A DNA stretch of 64,000 bases from an uncultured Verrucomicrobiae bacterium (GTDB taxonomy: Bacteria; Verrucomicrobiota; Verrucomicrobiia; Chthoniobacterales; UBA10450): NCBI GenBank assembly GCA_963726745.1, contig CAVSDR010000006.1:416001-480000 (forward strand), written 5' to 3'. The translations under genes were made by a program, and so were the position numbers. Shown in pieces: positions 1 through 64,000 of this stretch. How positions within the stretch are numbered: the stretch's first letter is position 1; every line of letters starts with the position of its first letter. The notes beneath the pieces are model-generated. The model ran no database searches and was not told the origin of the DNA. It worked only from the letters and a program-made list of their open reading frames with translations.

Positions 1-821
1 GCGATGATGCGATAGATCGCGAACGGCGCGAAACCGCGCGCCCGCACCCAGTGCATGAACCAGGCGACGACCGCGAGCGCGACCACGAAGGAAACCGCGA
101 AACCGATCCCGAGCACGAGCCAGTTGTGCGTCGTCATGTGCAGCGGCGCGAGTTCATCTGGGCCGCCATGCTTCGGTGAGATCGTCTTCAGGAGATCATA
201 GCCGGTCGCGACCACCATCGTCGGCATCGAGAGGAAGAAGGAGAACTCGAGCGCCGCGGTGCGCGACATCCCGGCCACCTGGCCAGCCGCAATCGTGCAC
301 ATGGAACGCGAGGTCCCGGGAAAAATAGCCGACAAGATCTGGACCGCGCCGATCCAGAGGGCGCGCGGGAGATTCATCTCCTCCAGCCGCTGGATGTGCG
401 GCCGACGGCAAAGCGCATCCACCACCCACATGATCACGCCACCGATGAGGAGCGCCCAGCCCATGACCGCGAGGTTCTCGAGATTCTTCCCAATCTGCTT
501 TTTGAGCAGGAAGGCCGGGCCGGCCGTGACTACGAAAGCGAGCAGCGTGAGGCTAAGCGGGTGCGTGAGGAAATTGCGGTCGCCGCGCTCGCCCTTTGGG
601 AACGTGGCGATGAAATCGAGGATGCGTCTCCGGAAGTAGACCGGAAGGGCCAGGATCGCGCCCAGCTGGATGACGATAGAATACATCTTCCAGAAGCTGT
701 CGGCTAACGAGACGTGGAGCAGCGCCTCTACGATCCGCAGGTGGGCCGTGGAACTGACCGGCAAGAACTCAGTCACACCTTCCACGATTCCGAGGAGCAC
801 CGAGAGAAGAAAGTCGTTCAT
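1..821 (-). CDS. uppP: Undecaprenyl-diphosphate phosphatase (partial, runs off the left edge)
   Basis: Reverse strand from ATG at 821 reads MNDFLLSVLLGIVEGVTEFLPVSSTAHL, the BacA/UppP signature. PGTSRS and EFSFFLSMP motifs follow in frame. Not in the ORF track because the stop lies outside the window. Confidence 0.93.
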   Translation of the reverse strand, partial: MNDFLLSVLLGIVEGVTEFLPVSSTAHLRIVEALLHVSLADSFWKMYSIVIQLGAILALPVYFRRRILDFIATFPKGERGDRNFLTHPLSLTLLAFVVTAGPAFLLKKQIGKNLENLAVMGWALLIGGVIMWVVDALCRRPHIQRLEEMNLPRALWIGAVQILSAIFPGTSRSMCTIAAGQVAGMSRTAALEFSFFLSMPTMVVATGYDLLKTISPKHGGPDELAPLHMTTHNWLVLGIGFAVSFVVALAVVAWFMHWVRARGFAPFAIYRII

Positions 822-961
822 GCTATTGGGCGAGACCGGGCCAAGCTAGAAGGCGGCCCGGAAAGCGCAAGCCGCTCGCCGTTGGCCTGAAACGCGCTAT
901 CCTTGGCGCTCGCAAAGACGCGCTCGACGCCTCGTGGCGTGGGCCCTCTTGCCTCTAGATT

Positions 962-2107
962 TTGAAAGTGACTTACGATTATCTCATCGTCGGCGCCGGT
1001 TACGCGGGCAGCGTGCTGGCCGAGCGCCTCGCGAGCGACGCCGGCAAGAAAGTCCTCGTGGTCGATCGCCGGCCGCACATCGCGGGCAATGCCTACGACC
1101 ACACCGATGCCGCCGGCTTGCTGGTGCATAAATACGGCCCGCACATCTTCCACACGAACTCGAAAGAGGTCTTCGATTACCTCTCGCGCTTCACCGCGTG
1201 GCGGAAATTTGAGCATCGCGTGCTCGCTTTGGTCGAGGGCAAGTTGCTGCCTATTCCGATCAATCTCGACACCGTGAATCAGCTTTACGGGAAGAACCTC
1301 GACTCCGCCGGGCTGGAGAAATTCTTCGAGAGCGTGCGCGAACCGGTGGCCAATATCCGGACGTCGGAAGACGTGGTCGTGAGCACGGTCGGGCGCGATC
1401 TCTACGAGAAATTTTTCCGCGGTTACACCCGCAAACAATGGGGCCTCGATCCCTCCGAGCTCGGCGCGCAGGTGACCGCGCGCATCCCCACGCGCACGAA
1501 CCGGGACGATCGTTATTTTGGCGACACCTACCAGTCGATGCCGCTGCATGGCTTCACCCGCATGTTCGAAAACATGCTCGACCACGAGAACATCACCGTG
1601 CAGCTGAACACCGATTACCGCGACGTGAAGGATGCTGTCTCTTACCGTTCGATGATCTACAGCGGACCGATCGATGAGTTCTTCGATTTCCGTTTTGGCA
1701 AGCTGCCGTATCGCTCGCTCGAGTTTCGCCATGAGACGCACGACCGCGAATTTTTCCAGTCACGTCCGGTGGTGAATTACCCGAACGACTTCGACTACAC
1801 GCGCATCACCGAGTTCAAATACCTCACCGGCCAGGAGCACCCGAAGACGAGCATTGTCTACGAGTATCCGCGCTCCGAAGGCGACCCGTATTACCCGATC
1901 CCGCGGCCGCAAAACGCCGAGCTCAATGCGAAATACCAGGCGCTGGTGAATGAGACGCCCGGGCTGCACTTCGTCGGCCGGCTCGCTTCGTATCGCTATT
2001 ACAACATGGACCAGGTGGTCGCGCAGGCGCTCACGCTTTACTCGAAAATCCGCGGCGAAAAGCGCGGCGCCCGCACGTCGGCCGCGGACGCCGTCGCCAC
2101 GCGCTAA
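962..2107 (+). CDS. glf: UDP-galactopyranose mutase
   Basis: GAGYAG FAD motif, HKYGPHIFHT, YTRKQWG, GRLASYRYYNMDQ. Confidence 0.96.
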   Translation: MKVTYDYLIVGAGYAGSVLAERLASDAGKKVLVVDRRPHIAGNAYDHTDAAGLLVHKYGPHIFHTNSKEVFDYLSRFTAWRKFEHRVLALVEGKLLPIPINLDTVNQLYGKNLDSAGLEKFFESVREPVANIRTSEDVVVSTVGRDLYEKFFRGYTRKQWGLDPSELGAQVTARIPTRTNRDDRYFGDTYQSMPLHGFTRMFENMLDHENITVQLNTDYRDVKDAVSYRSMIYSGPIDEFFDFRFGKLPYRSLEFRHETHDREFFQSRPVVNYPNDFDYTRITEFKYLTGQEHPKTSIVYEYPRSEGDPYYPIPRPQNAELNAKYQALVNETPGLHFVGRLASYRYYNMDQVVAQALTLYSKIRGEKRGARTSAADAVATR

Positions 2108-2122
2108 CGACTCCCCACGCGC

Positions 2123-2619
2123 ATGGCCATCCGCATTCTCGTCACCGGCGGCACCTTCGATAAGGAATACGACGAGCTCAGCGGCCGGCTCTATTTCAAG
2201 GACAGCCACATGGCCGAGATGCTGCGGCTCGGGCGCTCGCGGGTGGAAGTGACCATCCGCACCGTGATGATGATCGACAGCCTGGAGATGACCGACGGCC
2301 GACCGTGCGCTCATCGTGCAGAACTGCGTTAGCGCCGAGGAAAACCAGATCGTGATCACGCACGGAACCGACACCATGACCGAAACCGCCGCCGCGATTG
2401 CGCGCGAAGTCGATCGGCAAAACCATCGTCCTGACCGGCGCGATGATTCCCTACGCCTTCGGCAGCTCCGATGGGCTCTTCAATTTAGGCAGCGCTTTGT
2501 CCTTCGTGCAGGTGCTCCCGCCCGGCGTCTACGTGGCCATGAACGGCCAGGCCTTCCCGTGGGACCGCGTGCGCAAGAATCGCGAACGCGGCGAGTTCGA
2601 GGAAATCCCCGCCGCTTAA
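2123..2619 (+). CDS. Small asparaginase-domain protein (two apparent +1 indels, near 2297 and 2412)
   Basis: TGGTFDK, ITHGTDTM and IVLTGAMIP motifs spread over three frames. Confidence 0.8.
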
Positions 2620-2679
2620 GAGCGGGACGCGCACGACCGTTGTGCGCGAATTCTTTTCCAGCTACACTCCGCGGCTCGC

Positions 2680-3510
2680 ATGACCTCACACGCCCCAGAG
2701 TTGATCATCGAAGCCGGGCATACCGAGCGGAATTACTGGCGCGATCTCTTTCGCTACCGCGAGCTCTTTTACTTCCTCGCCTGGCGCGACGTGCTCGTGC
2801 GCTACAAGCAAACCGTCATCGGCATTCTCTGGGCGGTCCTGCGGCCGCTGCTCACGATGATGGTTTTCACCTTCGTCTTCAGCCGCATCGCCAAGCTCCC
2901 GGCCGACGGCGTCCCCTACCCGGTGATGGTCTTCGCCGCGATGCTTCCGTGGCAGCTCTTCGCCACCTCGCTCAGCGAAGGCAGCGGCAGCCTGATCAAC
3001 AACGCCAACCTGATCTCAAAAGTCTACTTCCCGCGCCTGATCGTCCCCGCGAGCGCCGTCATCGTTTCTTTCGTCGACTTCGCCATCTCCATGGTCCTGC
3101 TCGCCATCTTGATGGCTATTTACCAAGTCTGGCCCGGCTGGCCGGTGCTCATGCTGCCGGTTTTCACTCTGCTCGCCCTGCTCGCCTCCGCCGGCGCCGG
3201 CATCTGGCTCGCGGCCCTGAACGTGAAATACCGCGACTTCCGCTACGTGGTCCCGTTCATCGTCCAGTTCGGCCTCTACATTTCGCCGGTTGGTTTTAGC
3301 AGCAACATCGTCCCGGAAAAGCTCCGTCTGCTTTACGCCCTCAACCCCATGGTCGGCGTGATCGACGGCTTCCGCTGGTCCGTCTCCCAAGGCCGCACCC
3401 CCTTTCCCACCGACAGCCTCGCGCTCTCTCTCATCACCGTCGCGTTCCTCCTCGTCACCGGCATCTGGTACTTCCGCAAAACCGAGCGCACCTTCGCGGA
3501 TGTGATCTGA
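2680..3510 (+). CDS. wzm: ABC-2 polysaccharide exporter permease (Wzm/RfbA-like)
   Basis: RYKQTVIGILW, NANLISKVYFPR, YRDFRYVVPF, LNPMVGVIDGFRW. Confidence 0.93.
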   Translation: MTSHAPELIIEAGHTERNYWRDLFRYRELFYFLAWRDVLVRYKQTVIGILWAVLRPLLTMMVFTFVFSRIAKLPADGVPYPVMVFAAMLPWQLFATSLSEGSGSLINNANLISKVYFPRLIVPASAVIVSFVDFAISMVLLAILMAIYQVWPGWPVLMLPVFTLLALLASAGAGIWLAALNVKYRDFRYVVPFIVQFGLYISPVGFSSNIVPEKLRLLYALNPMVGVIDGFRWSVSQGRTPFPTDSLALSLITVAFLLVTGIWYFRKTERTFADVI

Positions 3511-3583
3511 AGGGGCATTTCTGGCCTGGTCCCATGCCCAGAATTGGCGACGGTTTACGCAAGCCTCTGGATGACGCGAACCC

Positions 3584-4510
3584 TTGCCTTTGTCCCGGTG
3601 GTCTTTACCTTCAGCACCTTTTGCCGTGAGCGCTTCTCCTGAAAATCTGGCACGCACCTTCGAGGCGTTCGACACCGTGGACCGCTGTCCCGGATGTGGC
3701 AGCAAGGCCATTCAAACGAAGTTTTCTCCGGATATAGCGGAGTGTGAGAGCTGTGAGCTTTTATTTCGGAATCCGCGACCAACTCAGAACGAGATCGCGC
3801 GTTCATACAATACGGGCGCGACTTTCTCTGCCTGGCAGAATGAAGAGAAGATCCGCACCGAGATGTGGGCGCGACGTGCTGAGATCGTGGGCCGGTTTGC
3901 TCGATCGGGTCGACTGCTCGACATCGGGACCGGCGACGGCAAGTTCCTCCAGATCTGTCGCGAGCGCGGTTACGAGGTCACGGGGACTGAGGTTTCGGAA
4001 ACGGGCGCCGCTTACGCCCTCGGGCAAGGGTTTGACGTGCGGATGGGACAGTTCATTGATTTGGATCTGCCCGGTGGCTACTTCGACATCGTTACCATCT
4101 GGCACGTGCTCGAGCATGTGCCCGACCCGGGCGCGGTGCTCAGGAAGGCCCGGGAAGTTTTAAAACCGGATGGGCTCCTGATCGTGGCGGTGCCGAACGA
4201 GGAAAACTTCTTTGTGCGCCGAAGGCTCGGCCTTCCGATCCACCTAAACCCGTTCGGGCCTCTCCCGTTTGGAGGCGAAATTCACCTCAATTACTTCCGT
4301 CCGACGACGCTGCAGCGGACCCTCGCGGGCGCCGGCTTCGGCTTGCTCGAGTTTGGCGTGGACGACATCTACAGCCAGCGAGATGTCACCATGCGAGCGA
4401 AGCGTGGTTTGCAAAGACTCCTGGCCAGAAGCTTTCGCTGGCACTTCGCGGTCGCGATGTATGCCGCCTGCCGTAACCAGGGAATGCAGGCAGCCACGAC
4501 AGCGCTATGA
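3584..4510 (+). CDS. Class I SAM-dependent methyltransferase with N-terminal CxxC..CxxC (start uncertain)
   Basis: CPGC/CESC, LLDIGTGDG, WHVLEHVPDP. Confidence 0.85.
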   Translation: MPLSRWSLPSAPFAVSASPENLARTFEAFDTVDRCPGCGSKAIQTKFSPDIAECESCELLFRNPRPTQNEIARSYNTGATFSAWQNEEKIRTEMWARRAEIVGRFARSGRLLDIGTGDGKFLQICRERGYEVTGTEVSETGAAYALGQGFDVRMGQFIDLDLPGGYFDIVTIWHVLEHVPDPGAVLRKAREVLKPDGLLIVAVPNEENFFVRRRLGLPIHLNPFGPLPFGGEIHLNYFRPTTLQRTLAGAGFGLLEFGVDDIYSQRDVTMRAKRGLQRLLARSFRWHFAVAMYAACRNQGMQAATTAL

Positions 4511-5895
4511 CCTATCTCACCTTGGCGCTGCTGCGCGTGCGCGCTCTCCCCGCTCGCCTCGTGCAGTCGGCGGTGATCTGGATTTGGGCGGTCACCGCGA
4601 TCCGGCTGGCTAATTTCGTCCTCATCCTGCCGATCGCCCTGCGAGCACTCTCCAGCGAAGCCATTGGCCTCTGGTATCTGATGCTCAACATCGTCGGCCT
4701 GGTCACGCTGGTGGAGTTTGGCCTCTCGGCTGCCATCTCGCGTCAGGGGACTTTCTTCTGGGCTGGGACAGGCGACGACGAGAATACGTCCGGCGCCCGG
4801 GGTCCTAATTGGCGCGGCCTGCGCGGGCTGATCGAACTTGCCGGGAAGGTCTATGCTCTCCTGGGGTGGGTCAGTTTGCTCGCTTGCATCGCTGGCGCCG
4901 TCACTTTAGCGCTGACTCATTCGGCAGCGATGCTCCAGCCCTCTTCGCTGGCGGCCTATGGAATGTTGAGTTTTGCTGCCGTCCTGCGCATGCGTGGGCT
5001 GTTTTGGAACCCGCTGCTCTTCGGAATGCAGCGGGTACGCGAGTCGCAGCAGATTCAGTTCACCGCCATCCTCTTGTCTTACGCGGTTTCGCTTGGGGGC
5101 CTTTTGCTTGGCGGAAAGCTTTTAGCGCTCGCTTCCGGCCAAGTGTTGCTCCTTTTGTATCCGTTGTATCGCTCCCGCTACATCGTACGGAAGGAGATGC
5201 CGGAAATCTTCCGTCACGTCGCGGCGTCGGTGGACTGGCGGCCCATCTGGTCGGCTACTTGGCGCGCCGGGGCAACCGTCCTCGGTTCCTGGCTGGGAAC
5301 GCAGGGACTCGTATTTGCCTGCGGCCAGACTGCGGGCTTGAGCATCTCCGCCAGCTTCGCCATCAGCACGCTCGTGGCCTACACCGTGCACTACGCGGCG
5401 CAAAGCTGGCTCCTGGCGAAATACCCAACGATCAGTTCTATGTGGGCCACTTCCGACCGAGTCGGCATTGTGCGTTTGGCCAGTCGTCGAATTGCATTTT
5501 CGGTCGCGACTTACGTGGTGGCCGCAGCAGCGGCATGGTTTGCTTTGCCTAAGCTCTTGATCTTGGTCGGCTCCCGCACTTCTGCGCTGCCACCTGGTTA
5601 TCTCGCAGCCCTCTTCGCTGCGGCCGGCCTTGATCTGTTTGTCGCGCTGCACTCTTCTGTGCTCACGAGTTGCAACCTTTTCCCTCACCTCAAGGTAATG
5701 GTTGCGGGCGGCATTTTGACCATCATAACTGCGTTCATCCTCGGACACTGGTTTGGCGTTGCCGGCGTCCTCGCAGCCCCTCTCATTTGTCAGGGTTGCA
5801 CCACGCTCTGGGCAGTACCGTTAATCTGTTGGCGGACGATCGTGGGCGCCCTACGTCCCTTCCGTGCGCAGACCTTCACCACTGTCACAACCTAA
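4507..5895 (+). CDS. Wzx-like polysaccharide flippase
   Basis: 462 aa with roughly 12 hydrophobic segments, IGLWY...EFGLSAAISR MOP-type N-terminus, polysaccharide context. Confidence 0.7.
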   Translation: MTYLTLALLRVRALPARLVQSAVIWIWAVTAIRLANFVLILPIALRALSSEAIGLWYLMLNIVGLVTLVEFGLSAAISRQGTFFWAGTGDDENTSGARGPNWRGLRGLIELAGKVYALLGWVSLLACIAGAVTLALTHSAAMLQPSSLAAYGMLSFAAVLRMRGLFWNPLLFGMQRVRESQQIQFTAILLSYAVSLGGLLLGGKLLALASGQVLLLLYPLYRSRYIVRKEMPEIFRHVAASVDWRPIWSATWRAGATVLGSWLGTQGLVFACGQTAGLSISASFAISTLVAYTVHYAAQSWLLAKYPTISSMWATSDRVGIVRLASRRIAFSVATYVVAAAAAWFALPKLLILVGSRTSALPPGYLAALFAAAGLDLFVALHSSVLTSCNLFPHLKVMVAGGILTIITAFILGHWFGVAGVLAAPLICQGCTTLWAVPLICWRTIVGALRPFRAQTFTTVTT

Positions 5896-5908
5896 GAGTG
5901 CCGGGCCT

Positions 5909-6574
5909 TTGAACTTCAACGAATACAATTTCAATCCTTTTCAGTTCACTCCCTCGGAGGAACTACTTCTCGACGTTCACCGCCGGCACGTGCCCTTTTT
6001 TGCAGGATGCCGGATGGTCCTCGATCTGGGCTCAGGCCGGGGCTTGTTTTTGCGCGAACTCGCCAAGGCTTCGATCAAGGGCATCGGGATCGAAAATCAC
6101 CGCGAATCCATCGCCGAGGGACAGGCCCACGGCGTGCAATACTTCGAATCGGATATCTTTGAGTTTTTCTCCAGCGAAGCGGGACAAAAAGTGGCCCGGC
6201 AATGCGACGGCGTTTATTGCTGCTTTGTGCTCGAGCACCTGGATCCGGAGGAGGTGTTCCGATTGTTGCGCGCCATCAAGAGCGCCTGCGCGTCAGACGT
6301 TCGCTGCCGTTTTATTACCCACAATCCCGAAGACATTGATGCCTTGGGGACATGTCTTTACAGCGATCTTACTCACAAAAGACTTTATCCTCCGGCGATT
6401 CTTGCGGCGATGGCTCGGAGCCAGGGTTTCTGCCGCACTGAGTTTGCCACTTTCCTCGGAATCCGGTTAGGCATGCGCGATCAGATTCGGCGTGCCTGGG
6501 ACCGCCTCTTCTGGGGGAAGCACAAATGGCGACCGAATTACCATCTCGATTGCTTTGCCTCGAACGGCCGCTAA
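5909..6574 (+). CDS. Class I SAM-dependent methyltransferase
   Basis: VLDLGSGRGLF, VLEHL, DLTH; TTG start at 5909 assumed. Confidence 0.8.
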   Translation: MNFNEYNFNPFQFTPSEELLLDVHRRHVPFFAGCRMVLDLGSGRGLFLRELAKASIKGIGIENHRESIAEGQAHGVQYFESDIFEFFSSEAGQKVARQCDGVYCCFVLEHLDPEEVFRLLRAIKSACASDVRCRFITHNPEDIDALGTCLYSDLTHKRLYPPAILAAMARSQGFCRTEFATFLGIRLGMRDQIRRAWDRLFWGKHKWRPNYHLDCFASNGR

Positions 6575-6576
6575 GC

Positions 6577-7314
6577 ATGGACGCCAGCCATTTTTATTAC
6601 CTCAAGCGGTTTTTGCGGCTCTGCGACTCCCGCTTTTGCCGCCGCCAGGAAAGCGTCCACTTCGGCGGAGAAGATTTTCGATTTTTCGAGACCTACTGGT
6701 GGCCAAATGCCTCTCAGCCAATCTTCGAACAGGAGATTGGTCCTTACTTCGAGGTTCTGGACTCCATCTTGCTCAATCCTTCTCTGGTTCTGGACGTCGG
6801 CGCCGCTTCCGGTCACTTTGCCATTCCAATCGCCCGCCGCTTTCCGGAGGCACGGGTGATCTGCTTTGAGCCCGCCTTACGTCAACGCTTACTACTGAAG
6901 CGCAACGCAGCGTTAAATAAGATTACCAACTTTCAGGTGGAATCGGTGGGACTGTGGAACAAGCAAGACCTCCTGGCCTTTCGCACTAATGGCGCCGAAA
7001 GCTCATTCGCTTCCGTCAGTCGCTTTGCCGGAAGTCTTCCCTTCCCCGAACAAGTCCCGGTCATCACCTTGGACCAGTGGGCCAGCGAGCATCGGATTTC
7101 GTCGTTGGACTTGCTCAAGGCTGACGTTGAAGGCGCCGAACTGGCCATGCTCGAAGGCGGCCGGGAGACACTCCAAAAGTTTCATCCGCAGCTTCTGATC
7201 CAGGCTTATCATACAGTCGATGGTAGCCGGACCTTCGAGCGCTGCGCCGCTTTCGTCGAAAAGCTCGGCTATCGCGTTGCGGAACCCCATCCGGGTTTGC
7301 TTTATGCGAGCTGA
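6577..7314 (+). CDS. FkbM family methyltransferase
   Basis: LDVGAASG, CFEP, LLKADVEGAELAMLEG. Confidence 0.88.
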   Translation: MDASHFYYLKRFLRLCDSRFCRRQESVHFGGEDFRFFETYWWPNASQPIFEQEIGPYFEVLDSILLNPSLVLDVGAASGHFAIPIARRFPEARVICFEPALRQRLLLKRNAALNKITNFQVESVGLWNKQDLLAFRTNGAESSFASVSRFAGSLPFPEQVPVITLDQWASEHRISSLDLLKADVEGAELAMLEGGRETLQKFHPQLLIQAYHTVDGSRTFERCAAFVEKLGYRVAEPHPGLLYAS

Positions 7315-8417
7315 AGGCAATGGCGGAGAACCATCAGTCGTCTACTTTGTCAGCGGCGATATTTACCAAATATCGACCGGCGGAACACTGTGCGATCGCA
7401 TGGTGGTCGACGAACTTCGCCGGAATTACAGGGTCCGTATAGTCATTCCCCAGAGCCGGTTTTTCGCGAGCTTTCAGCGTCCGCTGTTAGTCGGATTACT
7501 TAATAACGCTCGGAACCTTACCCTGCGATTCCCCAAGGGATCGCTTGTCTTCGTCGACCACGGGATCTACCGCGATCTTTTCCTGGTCGCGCAATTGTGG
7601 AGGTTCCTTTACCGCTGTCGCGTCGTCGCCTTGGTCTACCACCTCGATTACACGGTCGCAGAGGTGAAAGGAGGGCGACGGCTGCGGCGACTGGTGGAGA
7701 AGATGATGGTGCGTGTTTACGATTTTGTCCTAACGATCAGCAAGAGCACCACCGAACAACTCCTGGCGTTGAACTACCCGCCGGAGCAGATCTCTAGGAT
7801 CCCGGTTAGCCGACGCTTTCAGCCTGGGACCCTTGACCGCCCACGGAGGAACCAGGCGGGGCCAACACGCATGCTCTTTGTGGGCACGGTCCAGCCCCGG
7901 AAGGGGGTCCACGACGCGATCGCTGCTGCGGGCTCACTGTTCGGAGGAATATCCAATCGTCCTCCAGATAGTCGGCGATTTTGATCCGCAGTCCGCTTAC
8001 TACCAAAACCTGCTGCAAGCCGCAGCGGAGTTCCCAAAGTTGCAGGTAGAGCTTCCCGGAAGAGTAAGCCAAGACGAACTTTCCGCCTATTTCCGAGCCG
8101 CGGATGTCTTTATCTTCCCAAGCCAGTGGGAAGGCTATGGCATCGCCATTGAAGAGGCCATGTGTTTTGGACTTCCTGTCGTGGCTTACAACGCCGGCTC
8201 GGTGGCGGAATTGGTGGAAGATGGCACCACCGGCTGGCTAGTAGCGCCAGACGACCTCGCCGCTTTAACCGAAGCGGTTCGCGAGTGTGTCCAGGATATC
8301 GCCGAACGCGAGCGTCGCGGGAAGGCCGGCCTTGAGAAAGCGCGCCTGCTTACGGAGGGGCAAGACCTTGGCAAGATTCTAGAGGAAGCAATCGCTGCTG
8401 CTTCATGTGCAAATTGA
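7304..8417 (+). CDS. GT4 glycosyltransferase (frameshift near 7930-7945)
   Basis: LFVGTVQPRKG in the first frame; PSQWEGYGIAIEEAMCFG in the second. Confidence 0.85.
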
Positions 8418-54275: not shown

Positions 54276-54279
54276 GGCG

Positions 54280-55158
54280 CTACAGGCCGATCGGATGCCA
54301 GGCGGTCTTCTGCTCCACGCTGTCGAGAATCCAATATGGATTCTCCGCCGCCTCGCTCTTCCACTGCGCCGGGGAGAGGTCGCGGCGCGTGTAGCGTTTC
54401 ACATTGAAGCCGCCGCCGCGCTGGAGTTCGCGCCCGATCTTCTCGTCGCCGGAAGCGTCGATGATCGCGTTCACGTCCATGTGGCTGGCAAAATGCGAGG
54501 CCAGCTCCGCGCGATCGCCGGCGAGCATGTTGACCACGCCGCCCGGCAGGTCGCTTGTCGCGATGATTTCCGAGAAGGTCAAGGCCGGCAGCGGCCGCGT
54601 GGTCGAAGGCAGGACGATCGCCGTGTTGCCCGCGAGAATCACCGGCGCGACCAGCGAAACCATCGCCACCAGCGACGGCTCATCCGGGCAAACCACCACG
54701 ACCACGCCGGTCGGCTCCGGCGAGGTGAAATTGAAGTGCGAACTCGCGACCGGATTTACCGAGCTGAAGAGCTGGCTGTATTTGTCCGTCCAGCCGGCGT
54801 AGTGCACCAGCCGGTCGATCGCGAGCGTGGTCTCGGCCTCGCTGGTGTCGCGCCAGGCGCCGTTGGAGCGCTTCAACTCCGCCGCCAATTCGCCGCGCCG
54901 CATCTCCAGCATTTCGGCCGCGCGGTAAAGGATTTGTCCGCGCAGATACGCGCTCTGCTTGGCCCAACCGCCAAAGGCCTTCCGCGCTGCCGTGACCGCA
55001 TCGCGGAAATCCTTGCGCGAGGCGCGCGAGAAATTAGCCAGCAACTCGTCGCCCCCGCGGGCCGGCGCGATCCGCCCGCTCTCGCTCCGGACGAACTTGC
55101 CGCCGATGTAAAGTTTGTAGGTCTTTTGGACTGCCAGTCTGGATTCTCGGGTCGCCAC
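54280..55158 (-). CDS. Short aldehyde-dehydrogenase-family protein (NAD-binding half only)
   Basis: [40 protein letters not shown]; no ELGG or catalytic Cys region; GTG start assumed. Confidence 0.8.
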
Positions 55159-55218
55159 GAAGTGAGGATTGCGTATGCCTGCGAAAAAGAAAATGGTAAA
55201 ACCCTTCCTGCCCCACGC

Positions 55219-56169: not shown

Positions 56170-56759
56170 GACTTCAGCGTCAAAAGCCGCATCAACTCGC
56201 GCCCCTCGCGTCCCGGGTGGGTTCGCATGGGAATCCATTCGCGCTCGAGCGCAAATTTCTCGCCGAAGAATTGCTCGAGTTCGTCGCGGCTCACCGGAAA
56301 GGGCGGGCCGTCCTCGTCGTGGTCCGGATTGAGAAAGAAAATAGCCAGCAACTTCCCGCCTGGTCGGAGCACGCGTGTGATTGTGCGCACGTAGTCCGCG
56401 CGCTGCGCCGGATCGATCGCGCAGAAACAGGTGTGCTCGAAAACCCAATCGAAAGCGCTGTCTAATTCCGCGGGCAAGGCGAAGAGATCCGCCTGCACGT
56501 ACTCTTCCCGACCGCTGCGCGGCTGCGCGGTCGCGCGCGTGATCGCCTGCGTGGAGAAGTCGAGTCCGACGACGTGATTCGCCGCGTTGCTCAAGGCGCG
56601 CACGTCATGGCCCGAGCCGCAACCGGGCACAAAAATCTCGCCCGCCAGCGGACCGTGCTCCGCGAGAAAATCGACCAGCGCCGGATGCGCCCCGCCCTTT
56701 TCCCATGGCGTCTCCCCCTCGGCATAGGCCGCGTCCCAATCGGTTTGCGTTTGTTTCAT
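56166..56759 (-). CDS. TPMT / thiol-halide methyltransferase family protein
   Basis: W..G.TPW, VPGCGSGHD, EHTCFCAI, GPPF. Confidence 0.85.
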   Translation of the reverse strand: MKQTQTDWDAAYAEGETPWEKGGAHPALVDFLAEHGPLAGEIFVPGCGSGHDVRALSNAANHVVGLDFSTQAITRATAQPRSGREEYVQADLFALPAELDSAFDWVFEHTCFCAIDPAQRADYVRTITRVLRPGGKLLAIFFLNPDHDEDGPPFPVSRDELEQFFGEKFALEREWIPMRTHPGREGRELMRLLTLKS

Positions 56760-56818
56760 GGCTACGGTTCACTGGCAGCCTCCGGCATGTTTTCGCAACT
56801 TCCTAATCGGGCGCGTCG

Positions 56819-57733
56819 ATGAAAAAACTGCGCGTGGGCGTCGTTGGCGTCGGTCACATCGGGAAAAATCACGCCCGCCTCTACGCGCAACTTCCGGGCG
56901 CGGAGTTCACCTCGATCTTCGATACCGACCACGAGAAAGCTGTCGCGCTGGCGCAGGAATACGGCGCGCACGCTGCGTCTTCGCTCGAGGAATTTGCCAG
57001 CGAGATCGACGCCGCTTCCATCGCCACGCCCACCAGCAGTCACTTTGCGGTCGGCCACGCGCTCCTCGAGCAGGGCAAGCATTTGCTGATCGAGAAACCG
57101 ATCGCCGAAACGCCGGAGGAAGCGACCGCGCTCGCCGAGCTGGCCGCGCAAAAGCAACTCGTCCTCCAGGTCGGCCACGTGGAGCGCTTCAATCCCGTGC
57201 TCGGCGCGCTCGAGGAACGCCTGACGCATCCGCGCTTCATCGAGGCCCACCGACTCTCGCCCTATCCCAACCGCAGCACCGACATCGGCGTCGTCCTCGA
57301 CCTGATGATTCACGATCTCGAGATCATTCTCCACCTGGTGCGCTCGCCGGTGCAGACGATCGACGCCGTGGGCGTGCCGGTCCTCAGCAAGGGCGAGGAT
57401 ATCGCCAATGCGCGCCTGCGTTTCGAGGATGGCTGCGTGGCCAACATCACCTCCAGCCGGATCAGCCCGGAGCGCATGCGCAAGATTCGCGTCTTCCAGG
57501 AGGACGCCTATCTCTCGCTCGATTACGGCAGCCAGACGGGCGAGATCTACCGCCGGACGGCGACCGGGATTTCGCGCGAAGAGGTCGAGATCGAAAAGGA
57601 AGAGCCGCTCCTGCGTCAACTCGCCTCCTTCGTGGAGTGCGCCGCCACCGGGCGCGCCCCGAAAGTGTCCGGCTTCCAGGCGACTGCCGCGCTGGAATTA
57701 GCCGTCGAGATCACTAAACGGATCCATCCGTGA
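56819..57733 (+). CDS. Gfo/Idh/MocA oxidoreductase, GnnA-like
   Basis: GVGHIG, EKP, GHVERFNP, DIGVVLDLMIHD; GTGA overlap with lpxB. Confidence 0.8.
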   Translation: MKKLRVGVVGVGHIGKNHARLYAQLPGAEFTSIFDTDHEKAVALAQEYGAHAASSLEEFASEIDAASIATPTSSHFAVGHALLEQGKHLLIEKPIAETPEEATALAELAAQKQLVLQVGHVERFNPVLGALEERLTHPRFIEAHRLSPYPNRSTDIGVVLDLMIHDLEIILHLVRSPVQTIDAVGVPVLSKGEDIANARLRFEDGCVANITSSRISPERMRKIRVFQEDAYLSLDYGSQTGEIYRRTATGISREEVEIEKEEPLLRQLASFVECAATGRAPKVSGFQATAALELAVEITKRIHP

Positions 57734-58836
57734 CCCTCTACTTCGTCGCCGGCGAAGCGAGCGGCGATGCCCACGGCGCCGCGCTCCTGCAGGCCCTGCA
57801 CTCGTTAGACGGCGAGCTGCATTTCGCCGGCCGCGGCGGCCCGAAGATGCGCGCACTCGCCGGCGCGAGCTTCCAGGATTGGAGTGAGCACTCTGCGGTT
57901 CTCGGTCTCTGGGAAGTGCTGAAGCAATACCCGTATTTCCGCCGGGAGTTCCATGCCACCCTCGCGGAGATCCGCACGCAGCGACCGGAGGCAGTGGTCC
58001 TGATCGATTACCCCGGTTTCAACCTCCGCCTGGCCCGCGCCCTCCGCGCGGAGAAATCGCCGGCTAAAATTATTTACTACATCAGCCCGCAGGTCTGGGC
58101 CTGGAACCGCGGCCGCATCCGCACGATGGCGCGCGACCTCGACCTGATGCTTTGCATCTTCCCGTTCGAAGCCGAGCTCTACAACCAATCCGGCCTGCGC
58201 ACGATCTTTGTGGGCCACCCGATGCTCGAGCGCGAAACAGCCGGCAAGATCACCCGCGAGCCCGACCTCGTGGGCCTGTTTCCCGGCAGCCGCCTGCGCG
58301 AGGTGCGGAAGATTTTGCCGGTGATGTTGTCGGCTGCCGAACGAATCGTCGCCGCGAAACCGGGGACGCGCTTCGAGATCGCAGCCGCGAACGAAAAGCT
58401 CGCGCAGGAGATTCGCTCGGTCGCCGATCCCGCGCGCTTCCACATCTCCGTCCACGATTCGCCGAATGCGATGCAACGCGCCGGCGCTGCGATGGTCGCT
58501 TCGGGCACGGCCACGCTCGAGGCCGCGCGCTTTCGCCTGCCGTTCGTCCTGGTTTATCGCGTCGCCTGGCTGACCTACTTCGCCGCGCGGCTGGTGGTGA
58601 AGGTGAAACATCTGGGGATGCCAAACGTGCTCGCCGGCCGCGAGATCGTGCCGGAATTTATCCAGCAAGATGCCGAGCCGCGCGCGATCGCCGACGCCGT
58701 TCTGCGCTTGCTGAACGAACCCGAGGCACGCCAGCAGATGCTGTCAGAATTCGACCGCATCATGCATCAACTGGGCGACCAACCGGCCAGCCGCACCGCG
58801 GCCGAGGCGATCCTCGCGGAACTCCGCGCTCGTTAG
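57730..58836 (+). CDS. lpxB: Lipid-A-disaccharide synthase
   Basis: AGEASGD, IDYPGFN, SPQVWAW, FVGHP, PGSR, SGTATLE. Confidence 0.96.
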   Translation: MTLYFVAGEASGDAHGAALLQALHSLDGELHFAGRGGPKMRALAGASFQDWSEHSAVLGLWEVLKQYPYFRREFHATLAEIRTQRPEAVVLIDYPGFNLRLARALRAEKSPAKIIYYISPQVWAWNRGRIRTMARDLDLMLCIFPFEAELYNQSGLRTIFVGHPMLERETAGKITREPDLVGLFPGSRLREVRKILPVMLSAAERIVAAKPGTRFEIAAANEKLAQEIRSVADPARFHISVHDSPNAMQRAGAAMVASGTATLEAARFRLPFVLVYRVAWLTYFAARLVVKVKHLGMPNVLAGREIVPEFIQQDAEPRAIADAVLRLLNEPEARQQMLSEFDRIMHQLGDQPASRTAAEAILAELRAR

Positions 58837-60125
58837 GTTACGAGAGTGGCGTGCGCGGCAAATTGCTCGTAGCTCCGCGTCTCGGCGATCTCTTTCAACG
58901 CCGCGATCGCTTCCCAGCATTCCGCGAAGGTGTTGTAGAGCGGCGAGGGCGCGAAGCGGACGATGTCCGGCTTTCGGAAATCGGGAATGATCCCGCGCGC
59001 GCGCAGCGCCAGCGAGATCGGCTGCGCCTTCTCGTGCTGCAGCGAGACGTGTCCGCCACGGCGCCGCGCTTCCCGCGGCGTGCCCACGCGGAAACCAAGC
59101 TCCGCCAGCTCCGCATCCGCCGCCGCAATCAGGAATTCCGTCATCGCGACCGACTTCTCGCGAATGCGCTCGAGCCCGGCGTCCTCGATCGGCTGCAGCG
59201 CTCCCTCGATCGGCGCCATGCTCAAGACCGCCGGCGTTCCGATCTGCAAGGCCGCCGCCCCCATGCCCGGGAAGAACTCGTCCGACATCTCGAACATGCT
59301 TTCCTTGTGCACGCTCCACCAGCCGGCCAGGCCCGCATCGACGCGGCCATCGTGCGCGAAATGCCGCTGGTTAATGTAGAGCCCGGCGACCGAACCCGGC
59401 CCGGCATTGAGCCACTTGTAATGACCCCAGCCGGCGAAGTCCGCGCCCCACTGGTCGAGCGCGTGCGGCATGACCCCGACGGTGTGCGAAAGGTCGAGGC
59501 CAATGACGACATCGTTCGCCCGCGCCGCCCGGCAGATCCGCTCCAGGTCGAGCAATTGCCCGGTGGTGTAGACCACCGAGGGAAAGAGCGCCATCTGCAG
59601 CTCAGGATTAGCCAGCGCTTTCTCGATCGCGGCCTCGTCGAGAAAGCGCCCTTCACCCGCCGGCACGACGACGATGTGTTCCTCCGGATCAAGCCCGCGC
59701 AGGCGCAAATGGCTGCGGAGCGCGTAGCGGTCGGTCGGGAAACTGTGCGCATCGATCAGCACTTTCGTGCGCGTGTCATGCGGCCGGTAAAGCGTCGCGA
59801 GGAGCTGGTGCAAATTCACCGTCATCGAATTGGCGATCGCCACTTCGTCCGGCTCTGCCCCGACCATTTTCGCGACCCGCGCCGCGAGCGTTTCCGCCAT
59901 CGTGAACCAGGGCGTGTCGCCATCGAGCCAGCCGCCGATCCCGCCGGTCTTCCACTCCTCGAGGACCCGCGCCAGGCTCTCCTCGGCTTCGCGCGAAAGC
60001 AGGCCTAACGAGTTACCATCCAGGTAAATTTTGTCCTCCGGCACATAGAAGCGCGCGCGGAAAGCCGCCAGCGGATCGCGGGCGTCGAGTTGCTGGGCCG
60101 TCGAGCGGGAAGGCGCGGTCGTCAT
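58833..60125 (-). CDS. kynU: Kynureninase 2
   Basis: YLDGNSLGL, TVNLHQ, FPTD, DLSHTVG, YKWLNAGPG, RGGHVS, PLYNT. Confidence 0.92.
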   Translation of the reverse strand: MTTAPSRSTAQQLDARDPLAAFRARFYVPEDKIYLDGNSLGLLSREAEESLARVLEEWKTGGIGGWLDGDTPWFTMAETLAARVAKMVGAEPDEVAIANSMTVNLHQLLATLYRPHDTRTKVLIDAHSFPTDRYALRSHLRLRGLDPEEHIVVVPAGEGRFLDEAAIEKALANPELQMALFPSVVYTTGQLLDLERICRAARANDVVIGLDLSHTVGVMPHALDQWGADFAGWGHYKWLNAGPGSVAGLYINQRHFAHDGRVDAGLAGWWSVHKESMFEMSDEFFPGMGAAALQIGTPAVLSMAPIEGALQPIEDAGLERIREKSVAMTEFLIAAADAELAELGFRVGTPREARRRGGHVSLQHEKAQPISLALRARGIIPDFRKPDIVRFAPSPLYNTFAECWEAIAALKEIAETRSYEQFAAHATLVT

Positions 60126-60174
60126 GGCGTCAAGGACGCTACGAGCGCCGGATGCATTCCTCAACGGCGCGCGC

Positions 60175-61887
60175 TCAGGGGACGATCAGGCTCGTCAGCT
60201 CCATCTTGACCGCGTCGACCAGGCCCTGGTCGGTCAGCTTGAGCGCGGGAATCGGCGAAAGACTGAGGAACGAGAGCGACATAAACGGCGCCGGCAGGTT
60301 GCTGCCTAATTTTGTGGCGGCCGCTTTAAGCGCCTCGATTTTCTCGACCACTTCCGCGAGCGGCCGATCGGAAACCAACCCGGCGATCGGCAAGGGCAGC
60401 GCGGCGATTTCTTTTCCATCCTCGATCGCAACCTGTCCGCCGCCCATCTTTTGCAGCGCCGCGACGGTCGCGAGGATGTCGCTGTCCGACACGCCCACGA
60501 CCACGATGTTGTGCGCGTCGTGCGCCACGGTGGAACCAAGCGCGCCGCGCTGGAGCCCAAAGCCGCGGACAAAGCCGACGCCGACATTGCCGGTGGCGTG
60601 GTGCCGCTCGAGCACGACCAGCTTGAGGATGTCGCGCGCCGGATCGGAGACGATCTGCTCGTGCACAATCTTCGCTTCCTCGATCGCTTCGTTGGTCACG
60701 ATTTGTTCCGGCACAATCTCGATCACGCGGATTTTAGCCGGCACTTTCGCCGCGACGGCAATGTCCTCCGCGCCGCGGAAGCGAACGTTCATCGTGTTCC
60801 GCGCGAGCTGCGCGGCCGCGCCTTTCGCGCCGAGATACTCGCCATTCTCCGCGACCAGTTTTCCCTTCTTGTAGACGCGGCGGACGACGAATTTCTCCAG
60901 GTCGTCGAGCACCAGGAAGTCGGCCCAATAGCGCGGGGCAATCGCGCCATGATTCCGCAGCCGGTAATGCCGCGCGGTGTTGATCGTGCCCATCTGGATG
61001 GCGGTGATCGGCGCCAGCCCGCAGGCGATCGCCTTGCGGATGGAGTGGTCGATGTGGCCTTCGCCTAACAAGTCGCCGGGTAATTTATCGTCCGTGGCGA
61101 AGGAGCAATTCGCGGAATTTTGCGGCGTCACCAACGGGATCACGTGCTCGAGATTCCGCTCAGTGCTCCCCTCGCGCACGAGCAGGTGCATCCCGAGCCG
61201 CAGCTTCTCGCGCGCCTCTTCCAGCTCCGTGCTCTCGTGGTCGGACCGCACGCCGGCGAGCGCGTAGGCGTTCAGGTTCCGCCCGCGCAAGCCCGGCGCG
61301 TGGCCATCGATCAACTTCCCTTTGCCCGCGCGGATCTTTGCCAGCTCGCTTTCCATCCCGAGAAACACGCCGGGGTAATTCATCAGCTCCGCCACGCCCG
61401 CGATGCGTTCGTGATTGATCATCTCGGCCAAATCCGCCGCGCTCATCCGCGCCCCGCTGGTCTCGAGATGCGTCGCGGGAATGCACGACGGCAGCATGAT
61501 GAAAAAATCGATCGGCAACCCGCGGCTCGACTCGAGCACGTATTCGATCCCGTCCCGGCCGAGAACGTTGGTGAACTCGTGCGGGTCGATCACCATCGCG
61601 CTGGTTCCGTGCGGCACGACCGCGCGGGCGAACTCCGGCACCGTCACCATCGTGCTCTCGACGTGGAAATGTCCGTCGATCAATCCCGGCGCAAGAAAGG
61701 CGCCTTCGAGGTCGATGGTTTCGCGCGCGTCGTATTCCCCCAGCCCGACGATCCGCCCATCGTCCACCGCCACGTGCGCCGGATAGATCTCGCCGCTGAA
61801 GACGTTCACGAGCTGCGCGTTCCGGAAAAGGATTTCTGCCGGCGTTTCGCCGCGGGCGACCGCGAGTTTGTGCTCCAGCGCTCTCAT
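60175..61887 (-). CDS. ade: Adenine deaminase
   Basis: PGLIDGHFHVES, DPHE, DGHAP, SDHE, VAHDAHN, SLSPIPALKLTD. Confidence 0.95.
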   Translation of the reverse strand: MRALEHKLAVARGETPAEILFRNAQLVNVFSGEIYPAHVAVDDGRIVGLGEYDARETIDLEGAFLAPGLIDGHFHVESTMVTVPEFARAVVPHGTSAMVIDPHEFTNVLGRDGIEYVLESSRGLPIDFFIMLPSCIPATHLETSGARMSAADLAEMINHERIAGVAELMNYPGVFLGMESELAKIRAGKGKLIDGHAPGLRGRNLNAYALAGVRSDHESTELEEAREKLRLGMHLLVREGSTERNLEHVIPLVTPQNSANCSFATDDKLPGDLLGEGHIDHSIRKAIACGLAPITAIQMGTINTARHYRLRNHGAIAPRYWADFLVLDDLEKFVVRRVYKKGKLVAENGEYLGAKGAAAQLARNTMNVRFRGAEDIAVAAKVPAKIRVIEIVPEQIVTNEAIEEAKIVHEQIVSDPARDILKLVVLERHHATGNVGVGFVRGFGLQRGALGSTVAHDAHNIVVVGVSDSDILATVAALQKMGGGQVAIEDGKEIAALPLPIAGLVSDRPLAEVVEKIEALKAAATKLGSNLPAPFMSLSFLSLSPIPALKLTDQGLVDAVKMELTSLIVP

Positions 61888-64000
61888 CGCAGCACCCCTT
61901 CCGCCACCGGATGCTCGGGCGTGGCCTCAGCGGGCTCGGCTGCACTCGTTAGGCTGCGGATGCTTAGGAAGATCGCCTCCGGAGTCGCGGGCGATGGGAG
62001 CGAGCACCTGCGTGCCGGCTCGGCCAAAGGCGGCGACCGCGTCGCGAATCGCTTCGCGCACCGAGAGCGCGAGCATCAGCGGCGGCTCGCCCACGGCTTT
62101 GCTGCCATGGATCACGTTCGGCTGCGTCGCGTCGCTCAAGAGGGTGACGTTGAAGATGTCCGGCGTGTCGCCGACCGCGGGGATTTTGTAGGTGTCGGGC
62201 GAATGCGTCCGCAGACGGCCTTCGGAATCCCAGACCAATTCCTCGACTGTGAGCCAGCCGGCGCCTTGCACGAAGCCGCCCTCGATCTGGCCGCGGGTCA
62301 CCCCGAGATTCACCGGGTCGCCGGCGTCATGCAAGATATCGACCCGCCGCAGGTGATGCATCCCGGTGTAGCCATCGATCTCCACCTCGCTCACGGCCGC
62401 GCCGACCGCGAAGTAGTGGAACGGTTTTCCCCGCCCCGCCTCGCGGTCGTAGTGAATCTCCGGCGTGCGATAAAATCCGGTCGCGCTCAAGCTCGTGCGC
62501 GCGAAGTAGGCCCGCTGCAAGAGCTCGGCAAACGAGATGCGGGTCGCGACTTCCTCCGTCTCGAAAACCGCGTTCTCCGCGAAAACCAGATTGTCGGCTA
62601 AAACTTCGCGTCCCAATTTTTCCGCGAGCATTTCGAGCGCGAACGGCACCAGCCGCGCCCGCAATTTCTCGCACGCATCCTGGACCGCGGCGCCATTCAG
62701 GTCGGTCCCGCAAGAGGCAGCGGTCGCGGAAGTATTCGGCACTTTGTCGGTCCGCGTAGCCATCACCCGGACGCGCTCGGGCGTGATCCCAAGCTCGCGC
62801 GCGGCGATCAGCGCCATGTTCGTGTAAACGCCCTGGCCCATCTCGATCCCGCCGTGGTTCACCTGCGCCGTGCCGTCCTGGTAGAGGAGCACGAGCGCGC
62901 CGGCCTGGTTGAGATGCGTCGTCGTGAAAGAAATACCAAACTTCACCGGCGTGATCGCGAGCCCGCGTTTGCGCCGCGGATGAGCGGCGTTCCACTCCGC
63001 CAGTTCCGCGCGTCGGCTCACGAACGCACTCGACTCCAGCAGCTCCGTCCAGATGCGCTGGAGGCGATTGTCCTCGATCTCCTGGCCGTAGTGCGTCGTA
63101 TTCGTCGCGCCGGTGCCGCGGTAGAGATTGCGCTGCCGGACCATCTCCGGCGCCAGCCCGGTGGCGCGCGCGATTCGGTCCATGATCTCCTCGATCACGA
63201 GCATTCCTTGCGGTCCGCCGAAGCCGCGGAAAGCGGTGTTCGAGGCGAGGTTGGTCTTCGCAACCGCGCCGCTGATCTCCGCGTGCGGCAGGTAGTAGGC
63301 GTTATCCGCGTGGAAGACCGCCCGATCCGTGACCGCGCGCGAAAGGTCTAACGACCAGCCGCCATTCGAGAAAAGCTCGATCCGCGCGGCTTGCACCAGT
63401 CCCTCGTCATCGAAGCCAACCTCGAATTTCCCGAGAAATGGATGCCGCTTTCCGGTAATCATCATGTCCTGATCGCGATTGAAACGGATCCGCACTTTGC
63501 GTCCCGTCTTCGTGGCCGCGAGCGCAGCGAGCGCAGCCAGGCCGGCAGCTTGCGTTTCCTTCCCGCCGAAACCGCCGCCCATGCGCGGACATTCCACGAC
63601 CACGCGATGCATCGGCTGTGCGAGCACGTGCGCCACGATGTGCTGCACTTCACTCGGGTGTTGCGTCGAGGAGCTGATGAAAACGCTTCCGTCCTCGCCC
63701 GGTTCCGCCCAGCAGGCATTGGTCTCCAGGTAAAAGTGATCCTGCCCGCCGAAAGAGAATTCACCCGACAACTTGCGAGGCGCAGAGGCCAAGGCCGTAT
63801 GGACATCGCCCCGCCGGATGAAGTTCGGCTCGGTGTGGAAGCTCTCCGCGGCGATTGCTTCCTCGATCGAGAAAATAGCCGGCAGGCTCTCGTATTCGAC
63901 CACGACCTTCTCCGCCGCTGCGCGGCAAAGCTCCTGAGACTCGCCGACGACCAGCGCGATGATTTGCCCGTGATAAAACGCCTCGTTGTCCGCCAGCAGA
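61884..64000 (-). CDS. xdhB: Xanthine dehydrogenase molybdopterin-binding subunit (5'-partial; indel near 62000)
   Basis: GQDHFYLE, RMGGGFGGKE, AFRGFGGPQG, SKAVGEPP; the shifted frame ends PSPATPEAI... with TGA overlapping the ade ATG. Confidence 0.93.

Follow-up and report, generated by a model that had tools for sequence, protein, structure and literature searches.

Sequence-specific uptake words are described, in the literature consulted, only for Neisseriaceae and Pasteurellaceae. Other short bacterial sequences relevant here include the integron crossover sites, attC R' and attI R, which follow GTTRRRY, and HIP1 of cyanobacteria, a hyper-abundant palindrome that is tied to methylase sites and whose function is unsettled. 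The USS of Pasteurellaceae has a 9-nt core occurring about once per kb, with PpdA/ComN as its predicted receptor (PMC12616744), and the receptor of the DUS of Neisseriaceae is ComP (PMC3630211). Arrays of attC sites that lack an integrase are also known (PMC4889954).

Motif A, whose consensus is CTCGTTAGGC (GCCTAACGAG in reverse, plus a weak T..W tail), is dispersed throughout the window, the whole 64,000-nucleotide stretch of DNA analysed here from an uncultured Verrucomicrobiae bacterium. Its TCGTTAG core occurs 38 times, compared with a mean of 3.10 and a maximum of 10 in dinucleotide shuffles, of which 0 of 100 contained at least 38. Thirty-two of the 38 cores extend to TCGTTAGNC and 20 to TCGTTAGGC, and 27 lie within 21-49 kb. 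A preliminary description had claimed this over-representation, together with the same core, strand and extension counts and a density of about one per kb over 21-49 kb; recounting reproduced its figures exactly, and Pfam confirmed the mutL, fahA, kynU and deoA-type phosphorylase genes in which it had placed copies. The enrichment is not confined to the window, a possibility the description had raised: the whole genome (3.41 Mb) contains 2,025 cores on seven contigs and 1,312 exact 9-mers of the motif, the latter against 16-84 expected under Markov orders 1-4. Core density is 0.45-0.70 per kb, holds on seven of seven contigs, and shows no regional bias along the contigs of this genome. The enrichment likewise survives codon-preserving shuffles. 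In 2,850 genes, 956 9-mers compare with 20.9 after synonymous shuffling within genes and with 60.9 when codons are drawn given their own and the next amino acid (eight shuffles each), ruling out a codon or peptide artefact. About 957 of the 1,312 exact 9-mers lie inside genes, a coding/intergenic split that is approximate because the gene calls come from our own hexamer gene finder.

The profile of motif A has a sharp, essential core and tolerant flanks that are uninformative past ~13 bp. The motif is strand-symmetric, with 915 sites on the G-rich and 950 on the C-rich strand (p=0.43), and successive copies are balanced in orientation (++ 535, -- 493, +- 496 and -+ 494 in 2,018 gaps). A REP, MITE or IS repeat was rejected: there is no longer or palindromic element and no repeat family around the sites, which are mostly in genes. 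An Rfam search gave no match, and no published description of the motif was found.

Table 1. Motif copies and related features of the window, with positions counted from its first nucleotide.
Feature	Position	Strand	Remarks
Motif A, 38 dispersed TCGTTAG cores	704..63354	22 +, 16 -	motif count
Motif B SAWNNNGYYGNCTAAW, 21 copies	2484..60748		shares GNCTAA with motif A
Motif B starts, first part	2484, 4599, 19066, 20951, 27120, 27411, 28616, 29447, 31111, 33150, 34074
Motif B starts, remainder	35434, 36482, 37658, 38226, 47613, 53395, 56451, 58053, 59607, 60733
A core, TAA stop of UDP-galactopyranose mutase gene	2104..2110	-	gene 962-2107 (+)
Low-GC (0.56-0.585) glycosyltransferase island	4500..17000
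A variant inside mutL	23010..23018	-	encodes SLG; FLE or FLD in 59/79 relatives
A inside mutL, codon about 110	23540..23548	+	Leu-Thr via rare CTA; same site in 15/79 relatives
A core, TAA stop of a gene	24320..24326	-	gene 23988-24323 (+)
A core, TAA stop of a gene	25796..25802	+	gene 25799-26509 (-)
A core, TAA stop of fahA	48693..48699	-	gene 47452-48696 (+)
One A core, both stops of convergent genes	58830..58836	+	TAG of 57730-58836 (+), TAA of kynU 58833-60125 (-)

Copies of motif A leave a clear imprint on coding sequence. In this genome it supplies about 10% of stop codons; together with a second word, B, it terminates about 18% of called genes and contains about 46% of TTA codons. Five window copies provide a gene's stop codon; the preliminary description was silent on these and on motif B, as well as on the integron crossover identity and on a third word, C. 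The tripeptides encoded by A are doubled (SLG 761 vs GLS 422; PNE 253 vs ENP 134). Among 182 site-ortholog comparisons, 157 show substitution only, 18 share the site, and seven lie near a gap; A arises in place by substitution, not insertion. Amino-acid identity at A sites is 0.61 compared with 0.72 for whole genes, and at the relatives' own A sites it is not lowered (0.70 vs 0.71).

Motif A is also unevenly distributed with respect to base composition. It is scarce in low-GC windows and islands of this genome and depleted in low-GC3 genes (0.24 vs 0.69 per kb); in the window, TCGTTAGNC is absent between 704 and 21793, where only four degenerate cores occur. Density shows no rise with gene conservation (0.42-0.57 per kb, with relatives partly sampled). 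Neighbouring copies less than 300 bp apart number 214, compared with 369+-15 expected, and this shortage is seen again in G065; in the densest genome, G087, a 200 kb sample shows no spacing effect (136 vs 135 under 300 bp). Pairs less than 100 bp apart are few in every orientation (+- 8, -+ 10, ++ 9 and -- 15 of 2,018 gaps).

The account we lean towards, tentatively, is that A is an uptake-sequence-like tag kept by transformation drive. The motif would be the recognition word of a putative sequence-specific DNA-binding protein in natural transformation: fragments bearing it would enter or recombine more often, so that point mutations creating the word would spread in the population. It would become fixed where it is cheapest, at silent codon positions, stop codons, spacers and tolerant residues, and a single copy per fragment would suffice, which would produce a shortage of close neighbours. 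B and C may be further specificities of like kind that arose in single lineages. The enrichment, its symmetry, the origin by substitution, the cost to proteins, the spacing, the lineage range and most of the uptake genes are observed; what we infer is that uptake takes place, that a drive maintains the word and that there is a receptor for it.

The preliminary description had likewise proposed a lineage-specific uptake word. In favour of that proposal, the statistics resemble those of DUS and USS, and most uptake genes are present in this genome, which encodes comEC, dprA, comM and 18 pilin-type genes. Against it, comEC and pilins are also present where families lack the word, this genome retains the ComEA-like domain only as a detached fragment (the 20 remaining motif-rich genomes tested have it intact), and no receptor or reader was identified for A. 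DUF7305 PilX-like tip pilins, the one pilin class compared with the word's distribution, were rejected as the receptor, as they are anticorrelated with the word (5/21 motif-rich vs 29/48 motif-poor genomes); no solved relative of these pilins was found. Speaking for uptake, a secreted nuclease-ComEA-like fusion is intact in 20 of 21 motif-rich compared with 24 of 48 motif-poor family genomes (p=3e-4, a naive value, as kin are not independent). The ComEA-like domain was not found in the four C-rich g49 genomes searched. We count against uptake the spacing null in G087, the lack of inverted pairs at terminators in this genome, the DUF7305 anticorrelation, the ComEA fragment, the paired copies of C described below, the unlowered identity at relatives' A sites, and the flat density with gene conservation.

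Motif A marks one family of Chthoniobacterales, in which it ranges from 13 to 4,633 copies per genome (~300-fold), and no enrichment was found in 298 other Verrucomicrobiota genomes. The MutL relatives of this genome are Chthoniobacterales/Spartobacteria, so that an assignment to Opitutaceae, suggested by the 16S sequence, was rejected; a FastTree phylogeny of MutL served for orientation only. Ca. Udaeobacter, which is very common in soil, is inferred to belong to the A-bearing family. The 8-mer of A also marks a Gemmatirosa contig, which extends the word to a second phylum, and a phage record has 43 copies of it within 41 kb, with both strands represented, compared with two for a control. Four paired-motif scans of viral contigs, which would detect only about one-tenth of motif-rich phages, returned 41 loci, one of them motif-rich. 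Several other candidates were set aside. Motif clusters in G028 and G029, considered as transferred islands, are mostly attC arrays, an apparent ATCTAACCA dialect in G041 is really an attC array in the stretch examined, and over-represented words in G055 and G018 are repeats within proteins. Four copies in L002 are not attC-like.

A rather unlikely alternative is that the words are bound inside the cell by sequence-specific proteins coating the chromosome, whether for nucleoid organisation or as a self mark against a translocating nuclease, with one protein per word and each new protein starting a new word. The preliminary description had named a nucleoid or recombination protein site as its second option. 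The behaviour of B and C bears most directly on this possibility. B is nearly private to this genome and patchy across genera, as a mobile gene would be. C is held by relatives, contains GATC and is unrelated to A and B. A, B and C each space themselves independently, as separate proteins would, with no A-B or A-C avoidance; this also counts against the uptake reading, since two interchangeable uptake tags should avoid each other. Head-to-tail pairs of C at exactly 15-16 bp occur 20 times compared with about one expected, a result replicated in new sequence (39 vs about 1.7) that suggests cooperative binding; motif A shows no such spacing peak in this genome. Long-range helical phasing of C did not hold (z=8.2 in the first 400 kb, z=1.8 in the next 400 kb), leaving only the 15-16 bp peak. 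The broken ComEA of this genome and the motif-rich phage are also compatible with intracellular proteins. Temperate phages of uptake-specific hosts also acquire the host word, however, so the phage does not discriminate between the two readings. A 300-fold copy range within one family fits poorly with a housekeeping organiser, and the uniform distribution along contigs and the lack, in our search, of autoregulatory site clusters pointing to a candidate reader argue against it as well.

A role for the integron integrase IntI or one of its relatives, as reader or maker of a word that is its crossover arm, is improbable despite a close sequence match. The 10-base consensus of A is the commonest crossover end of the attC and attI sites of this order. 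Among attC ends, 56 of 62 carry TCGTTAG plus RY, TCGTTAGGC being the commonest (26/62), and 20 of 30 intI-upstream stretches, counted by eye, contain CTCGTTAG; in other families, about 122 of 150 sites listed end in CGTTAGGC (hand count). In this genome, 14 attC sites form an array whose end is attI-like (C6:736-745 kb), and the occurrence of the 8-mer in a second phylum points the same way. However, no intact intI was found in this genome, only a remnant, and IntI presence does not predict the word: within the family, 16 of 21 motif-rich genomes carry IntI, as do 33 of 48 motif-poor ones (p=0.58), and it is also present in eight of ten genomes of other families, all ten of which lack a genome-wide word. 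Att-like sites with a partner arm are limited to the array and one C4 site, and a partner arm lies 40-150 bp from 61 of 1,306 dispersed copies compared with 71 and 72 in controls; the dispersed copies are not scars of att sites. Tolerated variants also differ: the attC variant TCGTTAGAT is confined to the array, with seven copies, whereas variants not of the att type are common (GCC 240, GTC 123). In addition, IntI secondary sites require only GWT (bioRxiv 2022.09.11.507474), and selection should act against sites that attract insertions into genes.

Related assignments to recombination sites were also rejected. A as the R'' inverse core of attC has the wrong orientation, with the extra-base L'' box identifying it as the R' crossover end; cassette ORFs do not settle orientation, the cassette strand having the longer one in 7 of 12 cases. 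A dif candidate at C6:149740 resembles the published Verrucomicrobia dif (PMC3025954) and matches none of A, B or C, which excludes A as a XerC/XerD half-site of the genome's own candidate. C starts like a Caulobacter dif arm (PMC2731167), but this genome's dif has the CGCATAA form, and a search of five genomes did not single out a dif with a C-like arm. A perfect B match in one attI of G028 was not repeated in the attI of this genome and was taken as chance.

The crossover match may be explained by a reader that evolved toward the cassette crossover end in order to fish gene cassettes from soil DNA, with chromosomal copies as a by-product. This would have happened at least twice (in the A-bearing family and in Gemmatimonadaceae), with several tag systems operating at once, and we consider it doubtful. 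The presence of the attC word in sister families without a genome-wide word fits attC as the older template; the reverse order is possible.

A methylation- or repair-linked mutational bias that creates the word with no selecting reader, as proposed for HIP1 of cyanobacteria, is very improbable. The substitution origin of A and the GATC within C are consistent with such a bias, but neighbour avoidance, the 15-16 bp pairs and the replacement of conserved residues are left unexplained, and the asymmetric, graded form of A and B, over 10-18 bp, is not that of a strict methylase site. An oriented signal of the Chi or KOPS type, serving recombination or segregation and suggested by a short, asymmetric, dispersed word in core genes, is largely refuted and hardly credible, since the replichore polarity that the preliminary description associated with it is absent for A and for B (731 vs 737) relative to GC skew, in a test based on weak skew and seven contigs, two of them >1 Mb, and successive orientations are balanced.

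One bacterial family carries a single word, which is also a cassette end, in hundreds to thousands of copies scattered through its ordinary genes, a tagging that may operate much as in Neisseria and Haemophilus. If true, this would be a third uptake-word case, and it would mean that self tags direct the exchange of genes in soil. Two gene-transfer routes are linked in a testable manner by the match to the integron crossover end, observed in two phyla, and the 300-fold range in one family and the separate rise of B and C provide natural experiments on word origin. A can also serve to assign phages and contigs to a host.

Compared with known systems, A resembles HIP1 in being hyper-abundant and imposed on coding sequence, but is asymmetric and graded rather than palindromic. 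It shares its 10-base consensus with the commonest attC R'/attI R crossover end, whereas its dispersed copies lack the partner arm, hairpin and cassette and tolerate different variants. Features reported for DUS and USS match those of A (PMC2817400, PMC2397512, PMC1939737 and PMC7811141). Like DUS, the words are lineage-specific and contain a stop codon in one frame, and two words in one genome are also found in the DUS carrier Simonsiella muelleri (PMC3630211). Dialects of DUS vary by single bases about a common core (PMC3630211), whereas GNCTAA is all that A and B have in common, and C is unrelated to both; unlike DUS, A forms no inverted pairs at terminators in this genome and recurs in a second phylum. 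Relative to USS, A lies in another phylum, belongs to a genome in which several unrelated words are stacked, serves as the stop codon in about 10% of genes, and equals an integron site. Like USS, it is an asymmetric 9-10-mer on both strands at about 0.4-1.4 per kb, falls largely within genes, raises the tripeptides it encodes twofold, and seems scarce in foreign-looking genes.

Motif A, a short DNA word with consensus GCCTAACGAG and core TCGTTAG, is real, family-wide and behaves as uptake sequences do. The window holds 38 cores (22 on the plus strand, 16 on the minus), 32 of them matching TCGTTAGNC and 20 TCGTTAGGC, exactly as the preliminary description had counted; only 3.1 cores are expected, and none of 100 shuffles reached 38. 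Enrichment extends to both strands of all seven contigs of the source assembly, G000 (3.41 Mb; 2,025 cores, 1,312 exact 9-mers), where motif A is the top-enriched 7-mer and 9-mer under Markov orders 2 and 3. It also withstands codon-aware nulls: 2,850 genes called with our own hexamer gene finder contain 956-957 9-mers, compared with 21 when synonymous codons are shuffled inside each gene and 61 when each codon is drawn conditional on its own and the following amino acid.

The CTAAC core and the A at position 9 are essential, most single changes there occurring at 0.1-1.8 times expectation and one reaching 5.5 times. Positions 1, 2, 8 and 10 tolerate change, and a weak T..W tail lies 3' of the motif. 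As previously claimed, copies are mostly genic and fall in several frames: 957 of 1,312 occur within genes, where they use all four open frames. A further 171 contain the stop codon of a gene, 183 lie between genes and one crosses a gene end. Motif A terminates 297 of the 2,850 genes. The proposed tie to rare leucine codons likewise holds, as 667 of 2,825 TTA and 306 of 1,279 CTA codons in G000 lie inside the motif. In 182 comparisons of sites with orthologs in 13 relatives, the motif is shared in 18, a gap lies nearby in 7, and the other 157 differ by nothing but substitutions. Amino-acid identity is 0.61 at G000 sites versus 0.72 across whole genes; no drop was found at the relatives' own sites (0.70 versus 0.71). 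One mutL site uses a rare CTA codon and is common to 15 of 79 relatives, and at a second the motif gives SLG in place of conserved FLE/FLD.

Copies of motif A shun one another in G000. Shuffling the positions within 10 kb, with the attC array set aside, gives 131±10 neighbours within 100 bp and 369±15 within 300 bp, against 41 and 214 observed. This self-avoidance recurs in genome G065 and was not found in 200 kb of G087, the densest genome sampled, where close pairs are mostly head-to-tail at 10-14 bp. Core density per 5 kb declines from 3.5 in windows of 64-66% GC to 0.6 at 55-58% GC, and no rise with ortholog identity was detected in the partly sampled relatives.

The family of G000, which we take to be GTDB UBA10450, appears to include Udaeobacter because MutL relatives carry the titles Chthoniobacterales, Spartobacteria and Ca. 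Udaeobacter. The 9-mer was found in every one of the 220 family genomes searched, of which seven are unpublished (13-4,633 copies each); counts in the lowest genera (g22, g38 and g48) are close to the reversed control (21-118). Sixteen genomes from 15 other families of the order have 1-19 copies, and in the phylum sample no enrichment was seen in any of 298 genomes from outside the family (maximum 175 versus control 180).

Further genome-wide words occur in the family. Word B (SAWNNNGYYGNCTAAW), which shares GNCTAA with motif A, has 962 strict copies in G000, where it supplies 213 stop codons, accounts for 636 TTA codons and occurs 706 times in genes versus 8 under nulls. It is nearly private to G000, with notable counts among 220 relatives only in G015 (43), G011 (34) and the unpublished G046 (163). 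Copy numbers of word C (CAAGATCGACAW) go up to 4,653 in another part of the family, against 22 in G000. At its sites, amino-acid identity is 0.47 versus 0.73. Words B and C each avoid themselves, and no mutual avoidance was found between A and B or A and C. Copies of word C pair head-to-tail 15-16 bp apart, the spacers being varied (20 pairs versus ~1 expected, replicated at 39 versus ~1.7); no such peak was found for motif A in G000. Enriched 8-mers near mutL of some relatives, such as CAGTCAAG, CATTCAAG and CGTTCAAG (fetched stretches L165, L135, L152, L161, L181 and L187), are possibly more words or local repeats.

Motif A is identical to the R' crossover end of integron sites: 56 of 62 attC sites, drawn from G000 and fetched loci, terminate in TCGTTAG plus RY, the R and L boxes of attC and attI sites being assigned by the usual anatomy of such sites. 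In G000 the attC sites fold as hairpins that contain unpaired bases, and the array on contig C6 ends in an attI-like site; no intact integrase gene (intI) was found in the 94.7% complete assembly, which retains a remnant. By eye, CTCGTTAG occurs in 20 of 30 stretches upstream of intI. Of 17 family genomes, 16 contain this type of attC, which is also present in families lacking the genome-wide word; there, ~122 of 150 listed sites end in CGTTAGGC (hand count; search pattern derived from one array of such a family). Dispersed copies were rejected as att sites, the partner arm being absent. In G000, the att variant TCGTTAGAT is confined to the array and non-att variants of motif A are common. Transformation is reported to drive cassette recruitment (PMC12614218).

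The word also turns up in a second phylum, Gemmatimonadota: on a 6-kb contig named Gemmatirosa sp., all four CTAAC occurrences read GCCTAACG, two of the four being forced by the search. A 41-kb phage record (G662, L284) carries CGTTAGGC 43 times versus 2 for the control, roughly one per kb with copies on either strand. GC content is 73% over the 20 kb fetched, and capsid, tape-measure-like and lysozyme-like genes were recognised by eye.

The competence genes sought after the preliminary description are present in G000 (comEC, dprA, comM and 18 pilin-type genes). Both comEC and pilins occur throughout the order and so have no discriminating power. A secreted protein in which a staphylococcal-nuclease-like part is fused to a ComEA-like helix-hairpin-helix domain is found widely in the family (L266, L282). 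A tabulation of 69 of the 221 genomes, G046 excluded, shows an intact fusion in 20 of the 21 motif-rich family genomes and in 24 of the 48 motif-poor ones (p=3e-4 in a naive test that treats kin as independent); G000 is the sole motif-rich genome among them without it, its two parts being separated. DUF7305 tip pilins were rejected as a reader, their distribution being opposite to that of motif A.

Coordinates of features in the window, in G000 and in stretches fetched from other genomes
Source	Position	Feature
G000, window	4500-17000	low-GC cluster of family-4 glycosyltransferases; probably a surface-polysaccharide island of foreign origin
G000, window	21955-22109	43-nt inverted repeat, 81% complementary, directly downstream of mutL
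G000	C6:736250-745450	14-site attC array, attI-like end, integrase not adjoining; outside the window
G000	C4:149.6-151.1 kb	second attI-like site and one attC
G000	C2:58.5-58.9 kb	frameshifted intI remnant
G000	C6:149740	intergenic dif-like site, Verrucomicrobia type
G000	C4:17230-17874	first part of nuclease-ComEA-like pair
G000	C2:230178-230279	second part, a fragment
G065	L430-L449, L470-L489	word C
G045	L084-L085	word C
G087	L455:5896-6641	two clusters of four motif A each, flanking a secreted-protein gene beside a pilin gene
G028 (motif-free family)	L002:6584-9005	four dispersed motif A, both strands, housekeeping-like genes, contig end; possible transfer or mis-binning
G041	L080:8700-14500	three attC sites broken up by a repeated element that has conserved ends of its own, like insertion sequences that target attC
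	L012:1423-3937, L013:1579-4134	two paralogous minor-pilin operons of three genes, the last gene of each encoding a PilX-like DUF7305 protein of 480-490 aa (0-6 copies across the family)
	L014:3600-5760	pilin operon resembling Verru_Chthon cassette (weak TIGR02599, TIGR02596 matches); large last gene broken-looking in our gene calls

The genomic signature of motif A is that of uptake sequences under drive. Uptake-linked drive, which would maintain the motif, is the account tentatively favoured here. Recognition by an intracellular binding protein, or use as a self-tag, is rather unlikely. That IntI reads or makes the motif is improbable, because IntI presence does not predict the genome-wide word, and an origin in mutational bias is very doubtful. 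A Chi/KOPS role is extremely improbable, given that sites lie evenly relative to GC skew (915 against 950) and show no replichore polarity.

Motif A is apparently unpublished: none of the top-listed papers in a literature search dealt with this word or with comparable words in the family. Comparison drew on papers on uptake sequences (PMC2817400, PMC3630211, PMC1939737, PMC2397512, PMC7811141, PMC12616744), on integrons and dif (PMC4889954, bioRxiv 2022.09.11.507474, PMC2731167, PMC3025954) and on bioRxiv 2025.10.24.684340. The motif is unusual on two counts: in two phyla it matches an integron crossover end, and it shares genomes with independent words. The original proposal of an uptake sequence is partly supported by the DUS/USS-like statistics, with membership of that class putative.
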